Assembly (NCBI GenBank): GCA_963751455.1
Contig: CAVVUN010000012.1
Coordinates: forward strand, 96,001 to 160,000
Length of the DNA stretch: 64,000 nt
From: Nitrospirota bacterium
GTDB lineage: Bacteria; Nitrospirota; UBA9217
Direction of reading: 5' to 3'
Below are positions 3,238 through 6,895 of this stretch, piece after piece (position 1 is the stretch's first letter; each line of letters begins with the position of its first letter). The notes beneath the pieces were generated by a model, which saw only the letters and a list, made by a program, of their open reading frames with translations, did not search any database and was not told the DNA's origin. The position numbers and the translations under genes were made by a program.

Positions 3238-3268
3238 TTGACCTGTCTATTACTTCATAGTTTATGAT
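3238..3268 (+). promoter_or_regulatory. MerR-type promoter with 19-bp spacer
   Basis: TTGACC (3238-3243), 19 nt containing the CTAT-N6-ATAG dyad, TATGAT (3263-3268). Confidence 0.75.
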
Positions 3269-3290
3269 ACACTCCAGCTCAGGAGGTATC

Positions 3291-3842
3291 ATGTACACCA
3301 TCGGTCAACTGGCAAAGAAAATCGGTCTCTCCCGCAGCACCCTGCTCTACTACGATTCGATAGGCCTCTTTTCTCCCTCTGGAAGGAGTAATTCCAATTA
3401 TCGTACATACACCGAAGAGGACCGCGACCGTCTTGAGCAGATCTGCACCTACCGCCGGGCCAGCCTGTCCCTGAACGATATAGGCCGGATCATAAAAACA
3501 AGAAACAAACGGAGCGTTGTTCCGCTTCTCGAAAAGCGGCTTGATGCACTGAACAGGGAAATCCGCGCTCTGCGCAACCAGCAACATTTCATTGTAAAGC
3601 TTTTGAAGAACGATCTCGCGCTTTCAAAGATCAGGGTCATGGACAGGGAGAGCTGGATCAAGCTGCTGGATAGGGCCGGTCTGGACGAGGCGGCCAGGGA
3701 CAAGTGGCATGCAGAATTCGAGATGCTTGCTCCCGACGCGCATCAGGATTTTCTCGAATCCCTCGGCATTCCAGGCAAGGAAATCACACTTATCAGGAGG
3801 TATTCAAGGCACGGACGAAAGACCGAGTCAGCCGGGCGCTAA
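3291..3842 (+). CDS. MerR-family transcriptional regulator (not Hg-sensing type)
   Basis: MYTIGQLAKKIGLSRSTLLYYDSIGL...RSNSNYRTY HTH, coiled coil, C-terminal WHAEFE...AHQDFLESLGI domain; RBS AGGAGG; only one Cys. Confidence 0.92.
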   Translation: MYTIGQLAKKIGLSRSTLLYYDSIGLFSPSGRSNSNYRTYTEEDRDRLEQICTYRRASLSLNDIGRIIKTRNKRSVVPLLEKRLDALNREIRALRNQQHFIVKLLKNDLALSKIRVMDRESWIKLLDRAGLDEAARDKWHAEFEMLAPDAHQDFLESLGIPGKEITLIRRYSRHGRKTESAGR

Positions 3843-3885
3843 TGTGCGGCAAAGACTTTTGAATGACGTTTTTAACAGAAGGAGG

Positions 3886-4650
3886 ATGAAGGTGAAAGAC
3901 AGGATCATGCTGGGATTATGGAAGTACATGCTGAATGTCCCTTCTTTTATGATGGACATGAAGAAGCAGATTGCCCGTGAAAAAATGAGATATGAAGCAG
4001 CTGTGGGTTTTATGACCGAGGACCACCGTCGTGTGCATCATTTCGTTGTCAGGGAACTTCCCGATGCCGGCAAACCCTTGTCCCCTGAATTAATAGCGGA
4101 CAAACTGGGCCTGCCCTATAATCGGGTCGCGTTCGTTCTTAATGATCTCGAAAAGCATATGACCTTTCTGTTCAGGAATAAGAATGGAGCAGTAACGTGG
4201 GCATACCCGGTAACGGTCGACAAAACGCCCCATCACCTCACATTCAGTTCCGGCCAACAGGTGCACGCGGCCTGAGCAGTGGACGCATTTGCCACGCCCT
4301 TCGTGCAAGGGCGATTACGGAACGAGCATATTACAGTCACGGTCCGCACTGAGTGCGCCCACTGTAAAACGCCGATGGAGCTGACTATCGACAGTGATCT
4401 CAATTGCACTATCAAGGAAAATGGGTGCGAGCCGATGGTCTTTATGCCGAATGTGGACCTCTTGAACCTTCAAGACGAGAGCATCATCAACGCATTCTGA
4501 AAAGAGACGGTCTTCTTCCGGTCGGAAGAACACGCACGAGAGCACCGAAAAAGGACACACCGGATACGAGGGGTTTATTTGACTGCGGAACAGATGAAGG
4601 AGGGCACGAAGATAATCCAGAGCGTGCTTTTTGGATTTCCTGATACATGA
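3886..4650 (+). CDS. MerB-like organometallic lyase, predicted selenoprotein with two Sec (UGA at 4273 and 4498), about 254 aa
   Basis: Reading through both TGAs gives AYPVTVDKTPHHLTF...VHAA-U-AVD...TECAHC...SIINAF-U-KETVFFRSEEHA, collinear with MerB YAWCALD and SFCCHVHFFAS; SECIS-like hairpin after each TGA. Confidence 0.85.
4295..4313 (+). promoter_or_regulatory. SECIS-like hairpin 1
   Basis: CGCCCTT-CGTGC-AAGGGCG; loop starts 26 nt after the TGA, with G at loop position 2. Confidence 0.65.
4513..4530 (+). promoter_or_regulatory. SECIS-like hairpin 2
   Basis: TTCTTCC-GGTC-GGAAGAA; loop starts 19 nt after the TGA; GGUC as in the E. coli fdhF SECIS loop. Confidence 0.75.
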
Positions 4651-4770: not shown

Positions 4771-6105
4771 TAAGTGGACCCCTCTGTCAAGACAATAAAG
4801 GGGTGAGATTAAGATGGTAACCAACCAAGCCGCAGCTGCATGGCGCTGCCCCGGTTTCTACCTCTCCCTGAGGTTCTTTTCGCTCTTTGAATTTATCCAC
4901 AATCCTTGCTCCACCGCCGTTCGCTGTTTGATAGATCACATCCGGTGTGCTGTAGTCCAATGATTGATGTGTTCTTTCCGTGTTGTAGAACATAAAGTAT
5001 TTCGTCAGCCCCAGTTGCGCTTCAGGTACTGTGGCGTACCCTTTTAAATATACGTCTTCGTGCTTTACGCTCCGCCATAGCCGTTCCACGAAGATATTGT
5101 CCAATGCACGGCCGCGGCCGTCCATGCTGATGTTAATGCAGTGCGCCTTGAGCACGCCGGTGAAGGCCTCAGAGGTGAACTGGCAGCCCTGATCGGTGTT
5201 GAAGATCTCGGGGATGCCGTATGTCTGTAATGCCTGTTCCAGGCAGTCCACGCAGAAGCTGCTATCGAGCGTGTTTGATAATCGCCATGCCAGCACTTTG
5301 CGTGAGTACCAGTCGATCACGGCCACCAGGTACACAAATCCCCGCGCCAGGCGGATGTAGGTGATGTCAGTGCTCCATACCTGATTGGGTCGTGTCACCG
5401 ATACGCCTCTGAGCAGATATGGATAAACCATGTGCTGCGGGCTGGGGCGGCTGGTGTTCGGTCCCGGTGCCATGCCTGCCAGCCCCAGAATGCCCATTAG
5501 CCGCTGTATCCGTTTTCGGTTGACCTGATGCCCTATGCCGCACAAGTACACGGTTATTTTGCGGCTGCCGTAGAACGGATGCCGGGTGTATTCAGCGTCG
5601 ATCTCACTCAGCAGGGTCAATTCCAGCTCGTCCGGGTCGGCAGTCAGATGCGGCGCATAGAAAGTGGACCGGTTGACACCTGCCAGTTCGCATTGTTTGG
5701 TTAGCGCCAAAGGGTTTTTGGTATCTACCCAGTGCCGCCGGTCCGCTATAGGCTGATCCCGGACTTTTTTTTAAGCCAGTCCAGTTCCATCTTCAGCCGT
5801 CCGATCTCGGAGTAGAGCCGCTCCGAACTGGCAGCAGGATCTACCGGCGCGGGACCGCGCGTAGTGTCAAATATGCCCGCAGCCTGATCTTGCAAAACCT
5901 TTTTCCACTGCCCCACTTGCGTTGGATGTACGCCGAACGCCTGGGCAATTTCGGTTACTGTCTTGACACCTCGGATCGCCTCAAGCGCGACCTTGGCTTT
6001 GAACTGACTGCTGAAATTTTTGCGCTTTTTTTCGCTCAAAACCTGCTCCTTTTTAACGGCAGGTTACCATCTTAAACTATTGTCCGAAAATTGGGGTCCA
6101 CTATA
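4771..6105 (-). mobile_element. IS3-family insertion sequence (about 1335 bp)
   Basis: Imperfect inverted repeats AGTGGACCCC-N8-GACAATA at both ends, GTT direct repeat outside, orfA/orfB arrangement. Confidence 0.93.
4787..6039 (-). CDS. IS3 transposase OrfAB: orfA 5746-6039 plus DDE orfB 4787-about 5770 via -1 frameshift
   Basis: OrfA HTH FKAKVALEA; OrfB WSTDITY, FNTDQG, DNIFVERLWRSVK; A8G slippery run at about 5764-5772 on the minus strand. Confidence 0.92.
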
Positions 6106-6365
6106 GTTTTAAAGTCAATTTTTAGAGCAAAGAACTATAAAACCAAAGTCATCTTCGACATACAAAAGTGGTTTGAAACAGATGATAGAAGTAGAGTGTG
6201 AAAATCATTTTATCAACGTTGAGAGAACAAGGGATCACTCATCAAGTAGTCGATCTCAAGAATTACTGATGTGAAACCGAAACGTCGAAGTAAATCGAAG
6301 TAAGTCCTTGATTAAAAGGGCATCTCGTTGTAAAATCATTATAAACGTTGATGGAGGTGTTCCTA

Positions 6366-6596
6366 ATGCCAATGAAAGTAAAAGAAATCGAAGAAGAGGC
6401 ACTTCGGCTTAGTTCGCATGAGCGAGCCCTGCTTGTCGAACATCTTATCGGAAGTTTGGAGCCCGATGAAGATCCTGACGCTGAGCGTGCTTGGATTAAG
6501 GAAGCCGAGCGCCGCTACCAGGACTACAAGGCAGGAAAAATGAAAACGAGACCATCTGAACAGGTTTTCAAAGAGGCCCGCGCAAAATTGAAATGA
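6366..6596 (+). CDS. Addiction-module antitoxin
   Basis: ALRLSSHERALLVEHLIGSL...AWIKEAERRYQDY; ATGA overlap with the toxin. Confidence 0.85.
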   Translation: MPMKVKEIEEEALRLSSHERALLVEHLIGSLEPDEDPDAERAWIKEAERRYQDYKAGKMKTRPSEQVFKEARAKLK

Positions 6597-6895
6597 TGCC
6601 GATTGACTTCCTTCCCGAGGCAGAGCAGGAAATGATCGAGGCTGCGCTTTACTATCAGTCTCTATCATCAGGCCTAGGAGATGACTATCTCGACGAGGTC
6701 GAACGCGCTGTTCGCTCCATAACATCCTCCCCGCAAACATGGCCAATTCTTGAAGGCAATTTGAGAAGACGGCTTATCAAAAGATTCCCCTTCGCTGTTT
6801 TATACAGGATTGAGCAGGATAAAATTCTGATGGTCGCTGTTGCCCATCTGAGAAAAAAGCCAGGATACTGGAAAAATAGAATCCGTACAAAGTAA
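6593..6895 (+). CDS. RelE/ParE-family toxin
   Basis: FLPEAEQE...RRRLIKRFPFAVLY...VAVAHLRKKPGYW. Confidence 0.9.
   Translation: MMPIDFLPEAEQEMIEAALYYQSLSSGLGDDYLDEVERAVRSITSSPQTWPILEGNLRRRLIKRFPFAVLYRIEQDKILMVAVAHLRKKPGYWKNRIRTK

Follow-up and report, generated by a model that had tools for sequence, protein, structure and literature searches.

A two-gene unit in a Nitrospirota genome pairs a histidine-motif MerR-family regulator with a MerB-fold protein containing two predicted selenocysteines

The analyzed stretch of DNA, 64,000 nucleotides long and hereafter called the window, carries on its forward strand a two-gene unit in which a MerR-family regulator gene precedes a gene for a MerB-fold protein with two in-frame UGA codons, referred to below as the lyase. 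Directly upstream of the regulator gene, the -35 hexamer TTGACC (3238–3243), which is conserved in relatives, and the -10 hexamer TATGAT (3263–3268) are separated by 19 bp, as the original prediction had stated. A predicted MerR operator occupies positions 3241–3261; its left arm, ACCTGTC, is strongly conserved, and its right arm is degenerate here. The regulator gene (3291–3842) follows the ribosome-binding site AGGAGG (3281–3286) and encodes 183 amino acids with a single cysteine, C52; a C-terminal helical, sensor-like domain (residues ~114–172) is encoded at 3630–3806. The lyase gene had originally been placed 43 bp downstream, with AAGGAGG as its ribosome-binding site. That motif is present (3879–3885), and the distance is correct for ATG 3886; however, AAGGAGG touches this ATG directly, without spacing, and we discarded this codon as the initiation site. 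The likely start is GTG 3892, since AAGGAGG lies 6 nt upstream of it and the starts of close relatives agree, which makes the gap 49 bp. The lyase gene, recognized by Pfam, AlphaFold, and alignment, thus spans 3892–4650 and likely encodes 252 amino acids, the frame ending at TGA 4648; its residues (U130, D133, C157-x-x-C160, and U205) are numbered below from ATG 3886. Inspection of the gap between the two genes revealed no terminator-like or promoter-like site, and the regulator and lyase are very probably carried on one transcript. The unit is flanked by a HigBA-type pair (2197–2896), an IS3-family element (4787–6039), and a TIGR02574 addiction module (6348–6895), neighbors that mark a predicted variable region around it.

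Spacers of 19–20 bp are given as the mark of MerR-activated promoters in the available text of a published account (PMC9909328). The bare pattern TTGAC[ACT]-19-TAnnnT occurred 121 times in the genome and is therefore weak on its own, whereas the same pattern combined with the operator half-site occurred once. A promoter profile built from relatives scored the window site at 45 bits, compared with 17 for the next best site in the genome, and TAnnnT was retained in 15/15 distinct promoter copies matched, the 19-bp spacing being imposed by the search pattern. The MerR-type promoter of the original prediction thus proved to be a real, conserved element. The long spacer occurs together with a conserved dyad, though the right arm is degenerate throughout the lyase clade of the window; a copy of the operator in Vibrio has the clear dyad ACCTG...CAGGT. 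A profile search of the genome for a second operator copy, as expected for a wider regulon, found none. A conserved TG-n-TACACT at 3265–3273, overlapping the -10 hexamer, may represent an additional promoter of the extended -10 type that gives basal expression.

The first in-frame UGA of the lyase (4273–4275) aligns with the position of MerB Cys96 and the second (4498–4500) with that of Cys159; they correspond to predicted Sec130 and Sec205. Each is followed by a SECIS-like hairpin, CGCCCTT-CGTGC-AAGGGCG at 4295–4313 (hairpin 1) and TTCTTCC-GGTC-GGAAGAA at 4513–4530 (hairpin 2). TGA was found at the first site in 14/14 and at the second in 13/13 covering loci, redundant copies included, and at both sites in all 17 lyase DNA sequences (48–82% identity) of a less redundant set that omitted the near-duplicates L006–L008, L010, L015, and L017. 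Of the 93 protein relatives, 53 stop at the first site, and eight carry Cys there and stop exactly at the second. Across 11 sequences, hairpin 2 was paired in 100% of cells, and two of its pairs show compensating changes, one of them turning Trp into Arg; its covariation was reached in 0/500 shuffles, a value inflated by the kinship of the sequences. The covariation of hairpin 1 was not significant (32/500 shuffles). Only 3 of the 46 conserved degenerate-codon columns kept a single codon, and all three, for the invariant Pro, Val, and Gly, lie within hairpin 1. The selA, selB, and tRNA-Sec genes were found in the genome of the window, and selA was present in the five lyase-bearing relatives tested. 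In sum, a conserved UGA aligned to Cys, homology beyond the UGA, SECIS-like hairpins, and Sec genes, the features by which selenoproteins are recognized, were all observed. The conserved TGA, the Cys relatives, the hairpins, and selA/selB/tRNA-Sec make double Sec insertion very likely, in agreement with the earlier designation of the gene as a Sec-lyase. Two tRNA-Sec genes were located (G000:C1:369631 and C13:3951), one of which may be foreign because the genome is 5.4% contaminated.

Many database entries of the lyase show W at both sites, and one shows G; their sources are short contigs. These entries might be taken to mean that the UGA codons are Trp codons or true stops, the gene belonging to another genetic code or being a pseudogene. 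We consider this extremely improbable and rejected both the pseudogene and the TGA=Trp interpretation: every DNA locus examined has TGA, some relatives have Cys, and the hairpins and the Sec machinery are present. The W entries are most likely artefacts of gene calling with TGA=W. In L006 and L007, 90 bp are inserted in frame between the CxxC region and the second UGA; this insertion, absent from the otherwise near-identical L004, may be a repeat or may stem from assembly.

The read-through lyase matched the Pfam MerB family across both UGA codons (9e-17). Its AlphaFold model (pLDDT 93) matched MerB 3f0o in Foldseek with an E-value of 6e-12, with no structure other than MerB below 0.001, and gave TM-scores of 0.62–0.68 against MerB structures (3F0O/1S6L). 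The alignment to E. coli MerB placed U130, D133, C157, and U205 onto C96, D99, C117, and C159, and D133 (Asp99) and C157 (Cys117) were invariant in all 34 aligned lyase sequences. The lyase thus shares with the MerB of E. coli R831b (PF03243, NF033555) the fold, Asp99, and Cys117, and its two catalytic positions are in the same register; however, its identity is ~20%, it has a longer N-terminus, an extra CxxC, and predicted Sec in place of Cys96 and Cys159, and its unit is devoid of merA, merT, merP, and a Hg-type MerR. The NCBIfam MerB models scored it below their cut-offs (56.2/193 and 46.9/200). With UGA at both positions, the lyase is not a member of the family by the Cys96/Cys159 test, but it may still work like MerB because the predicted Sec is a chemical analogue of Cys, and MerB-like action appears likely.

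A described counterpart is SaoL (NF040728), reported by Haft and Gwadz (bioRxiv 10.1101/2022.07.06.499078). Both proteins have a MerB fold, Sec at the Cys159 position, an anaerobic host, and truncated database entries. According to the available text of that report, the single Sec of SaoL lies in a CU motif, its first site is still Cys, and it marks a locus of nine genes, whereas the window lyase has two predicted Sec residues, in AU and FU motifs, and a MerR regulator as its only partner. Identity with SaoL was rejected on account of the two UGA codons, a score of 38.9 against a cut-off of 140, and neighbors (HigBA, IS3, and addiction modules) that do not constitute an SAO locus. A search of the genome for SaoC, run without a positive control, found nothing, and a plasmid search with the lyase gave no match at E 1e-12. 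In the available part of a 2026 selenoproteome review (PMC13188914), SaoL is the sole entry of this kind and has one Sec; our literature search for a two-Sec MerB, in which few subscription papers were covered, found nothing beyond SaoL. The two-Sec MerB-fold protein is uncatalogued and placed under an uncharacterized His-type MerR, and the two genes form a real, conserved unit.

The regulator has the winged helix-turn-helix and coiled coil of the MerR family, which among PDB structures are closest to those of TipA and Mta; matches to PDB entries stop by residue ~120. The original prediction had described one cysteine and a helical C-terminal domain (WHAEFE...AHQDFLESLGI), and C52, situated in the DNA-binding domain, is the only cysteine. 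Hg(II)-sensing MerR binds the metal with the triad Cys82/Cys117/Cys126, as set out in the accessible text of PMC9909328. This triad is absent from the regulator. The regulator passed no NCBIfam cut-off (42.8/150.85 for TIGR02051, the Hg-type MerR), and an ESM Atlas search with the full regulator returned generic MerR clusters only. MliR was rejected as its family, since MliR has no effector domain according to the available text of PMC9478572.

The sensor domain, ~58 residues long, contains the invariant residues W122, G130, W139, H140, F143, P148, H151, and R169, a near-invariant Glu at position 144, and no conserved Cys. Its motif HxxFx7HxxF corresponds to H140/F143/H151/F154 and was found in 119 of 121 full-length relatives. 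A profile search with the domain recovered 649 clusters at 50% identity; among the 150 representatives listed, 148 have HxxFx7Hxx(F/L), and 14 are stand-alone proteins of no more than 70 residues. Examination of 27 representatives picked for unusual length revealed two fusions to a SAM methyltransferase of the RQGPG type (P0255 and P0316) and one fusion to an ECF sigma factor (P0320). Because it is fused to a methyltransferase in some proteins and to an ECF sigma factor in another, the domain is a mobile signaling module. Searches with it in Pfam and among PDB sequences and folds gave nothing significant; weak matches to SAM-like folds (3idw, E 0.3; 5vyk, Z 5.2) are leads only. We take HxxFx7HxxF to be the motif of the uncharacterized family cd04790 (HTH_Cfa-like_unk) of CDD, presumably composed of MerR proteins of ~172–185 amino acids with this C-terminal motif and methyltransferase-fused relatives; we know of no function assigned to cd04790. 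A literature search covering few subscription papers yielded no study of the HxxFx7HxxF regulator family, and neither a link of such a regulator to a selenoprotein nor its operator was found in print.

In the survey of 401 genomes of the phylum, the lyase family was detected in seven, all from the family to which the window belongs (7 of its 64 genomes). The closest named relative, L001, has 79% identity. An intact regulator gene lies directly upstream of the lyase gene in six of the seven; the pairing is thus not unique to the genome of the window, the point that a neighborhood check was to settle. In the seventh genome (G005), a deletion has fused the first 53 codons of the regulator to the lyase. 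The pair also occurs at the metagenome loci L003 and L005. Within the clade, the regulator was deleted twice independently, in L020 and in the L004 group, where the promoter is kept and the regulator is lost after ~8 codons. Five distant lyases (L002, L011, L012, L013, and L080) have 1.49 kb or more of DNA upstream, and none of them has such a regulator; L009 and L014 were left out of this count because their upstream DNA was too short. In a midpoint-rooted FastTree phylogeny, the paired lyases group in a single clade (support 0.91), and gene order, short gap, and operator are kept across four genera at 63–82% lyase identity, with differing flanking genes. The pairing is conserved but limited to one clade, and it probably arose once.

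The regulator family also occurs with other partners. The operator is conserved ahead of the regulator in close relatives. On an Acinetobacter plasmid it stands before a lone regulator gene, in Vibrio before a regulator gene paired with one for a DMT transporter, and in G010, G024, and G097 before genes for the stand-alone sensor domain; the corresponding copy in G032 is more diverged. G010 and G097 contain the regulator and the free sensor domain without a lyase. The cargo of the family is a DMT transporter, a methyltransferase fusion, a stand-alone sensor domain, or nothing, and the presence of the same operator before differing genes implies that the family builds small self-promoted units with changing cargo. 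In this respect the regulator resembles TipA, described as a minimal autoregulated system in the accessible text of PMC7762955: it too stands behind its own MerR-type promoter, its ligand domain is likewise encoded on its own as a small protein, and its DNA-binding domain is closest to the TipA/Mta/AlbA class in PDB. However, the short, His-based sensor domain has no relation to TipAS, with no match to the TipAS effector domain in Pfam, and the free domain found here has a gene of its own, that of TipA being the product of an internal start. An ATG or GTG that might serve as an internal start is present where the sensor domain begins in 9 of the 11 regulators shown, but no ribosome-binding site is clear there. 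Stand-alone HxxFx7HxxF genes of ~60 amino acids were located at L030:2090-2270, L032:331-510, L033:1510-1689, and L051:~2230-2410, and no family model exists for them among those searched. In G010 and G097, the stand-alone sensor gene lies directly ahead of the regulator, as a minimal regulator-plus-sponge unit.

The earlier statement that merA, merT, and merP are missing from the window holds for the whole genome (100% complete), in which none was detected. The MerA profile search gave nothing over the cut-off, and the best MerA-like protein is devoid of the C-terminal Cys pair by which MerA is recognized; for MerT there was no match and for MerP none over the cut-off, in searches whose cut-offs the control genomes did not pass either. 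With no MerA, MerT, or MerP and no Hg Cys triad, the unit is not a mer operon, as had been proposed. Six other MerR-type matches in the genome were inspected, and none has the Hg triad; a MerR-type protein with eight C-terminal Cys (G000:C15:893361-893564, minus strand) is possibly an Fe-S or Zn sensor. In the genome, hgcA scored over the cut-off and an hgcB-like ferredoxin gene comes after it (G000:C15:161700-163490), and the host is thus a predicted mercury methylator; an AbrB-like small gene precedes the pair. Three genomes, namely that of the window (G000), G024, and G032, combine hgcA and the lyase with no MerA over the cut-off. Since 52 of the 64 family genomes have hgcA, compared with 4/7 module genomes (the three without it are 83–86% complete), hgcA does not single out methylmercury, and its co-occurrence was rejected as a discriminator because it is not enriched with the module.

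The explanation that we favor, though with no better than even confidence, is that the unit is an autoregulated, self-amplifying system for inducible detoxification or trapping of a metal or organometal toxicant. In this scheme, a regulator dimer would sit on the operator and a metal ion or organometal cation would bind His140 and His151, with Glu144 as a further candidate ligand, instead of a Cys triad. The dimer would then untwist the spacer, as TipA does, and raise transcription of the regulator and the lyase; self-activation by such untwisting is in our judgment quite likely. SelB would place Sec at both UGA codons, and the Sec130/Asp133/Sec205 site would bind the metal and protonate the metal-carbon bond as MerB does. 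That the two histidines bind a metal ion or organometal as the inducer, which the lyase would cleave or trap, is taken as a whole about an even call. MerB keeps Hg(II) until MerA takes it, according to the available text of PMC8261052. With no MerA to unload it, the lyase probably holds the metal between two selenolates and would be a trap as much as a catalyst, and a product that stays bound would suit an induced sponge. The distant lyases with no such regulator, the two regulator deletions, and the occurrence of the regulator without the lyase in G010 and G097 speak against this explanation. Sensing of an organometal through histidine is also disfavored by the general preference of soft organometals for Cys over His, the sensor domain having no conserved Cys, and the partners of the regulator (methyltransferase fusions, the DMT transporter, and the ECF sigma factor) suggest an organic ligand equally.

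The last point leads to a reading in which the inducer would be an organic toxicant (heme, or a small molecule that is electrophilic or resembles an antibiotic). The sensor domain would then act as a sponge in the manner of TipAS, and the two-selenol protein would be one of several interchangeable means of inactivation, alongside methylation and efflux. In favor of this reading are the stand-alone sensor genes beneath the same operator, the DNA-binding domain, which most resembles those of TipA and Mta, the other cargo in the form of a DMT transporter and methyltransferase fusions, and the invariant Trp and Phe around the histidines. Nevertheless, the sensor domain is only ~58 residues long with no TipAS match in Pfam, its two invariant His and near-invariant Glu suit a metal site, and chemistry on the MerB fold is known only at metals in the available text of Haft and Gwadz; we consider an organic inducer rather unlikely.

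It is also conceivable, if unlikely, that a single insertion in the ancestor of one clade placed the lyase, as a passenger, behind a unit consisting of the regulator only. The lyase would use the promoter, but the signal of the regulator would be unrelated to the lyase substrate. The restriction of the pairing to a single clade, its absence from the five distant lyases, the two separate deletions of the regulator, and the site among HigBA, IS3, and addiction-module genes are consistent with such an insertion, but order, short gap, and operator would then have been kept in four genera at 63–82% lyase identity while the flanks changed. A still less probable role for the lyase is that of a metal carrier or storage protein of anaerobic metabolism, as proposed for SaoL, with the regulator reporting the metal level. 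MerB variants bind Cu and MerB structurally resembles NosL, as stated in the accessible text of PMC8261052, and Haft and Gwadz argue, in the part of their report available, that Sec at a metal site may alter the substrate; the extra conserved CxxC of the lyase, and the location of another MerB-like type with two UGA codons behind an Fe-S protein gene, point the same way. Against a carrier, the catalytic Asp never varies (the variant that binds copper has Ser at that position), a self-activated MerR promoter is typical of defense units, and the distribution is patchy (7/64 family genomes).

Within the metal or organometal reading, methylmercury produced by HgcAB of the host is the leading named candidate for substrate and inducer, an organomercurial inducer being possible because the host bears hgcA and is a predicted mercury methylator. 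The specific proposal of MerA-free self-protection against methylmercury, in which the His-based MerR would sense it, the two-Sec MerB would cleave it, and the selenolates would lock the mercury, is a tentative one that we think more probably wrong than right by a good measure. If true, it would add a mercury sensor of a new kind and a route of anaerobic demethylation that has escaped annotation; how anaerobes demethylate mercury is described as an open question in the available text of PMC10114901. Published merB surveys demand Cys96, Asp99, and Cys159 on called proteins, as given in their accessible text (PMC8261052, PMC12484752). The two-Sec lyase family fails this filter because gene calls are cut at UGA. 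A survey of 84,032 genomes (PMC8261052) reports, in its available part, no MerB-positive, MerA-negative genome with hgcAB and asks how MerB could act without MerA. The unit makes MerA-independent handling of organomercury in anaerobes directly testable, and its promoter and regulator provide a ready reporter for identifying what the widespread, uncharacterized sensor domain of these MerR proteins (649 clusters) binds.

Some MerB-like protein, of one of three kinds, was found in 18 of the 64 family genomes. The genome of the window contains a second two-UGA MerB-like gene (L059, G000:C6:~115300-116050, minus strand) with ~22% identity to the lyase. Its UGA motifs are FAQUGFEA and WPLAUSR, Glu replaces Asp99, and its SaoL score of 41.8/140 is below the cut-off; it lies behind ECF sigma and Fe-S protein genes and has a frameshift just past the second UGA. 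Related two-UGA copies occur in G016 (two), G019, and G025 (two). Cys-type MerB-like genes (L021, L060, L061, L063, and L066, from G011, G224, G150, and G026) continue the reading frame of a thioredoxin-like ORF upstream, from which a UGA (GFSUR) separates them; that ORF probably represents a selenoprotein domain of the DF family joined to MerB (NF049942, 45.6/70).
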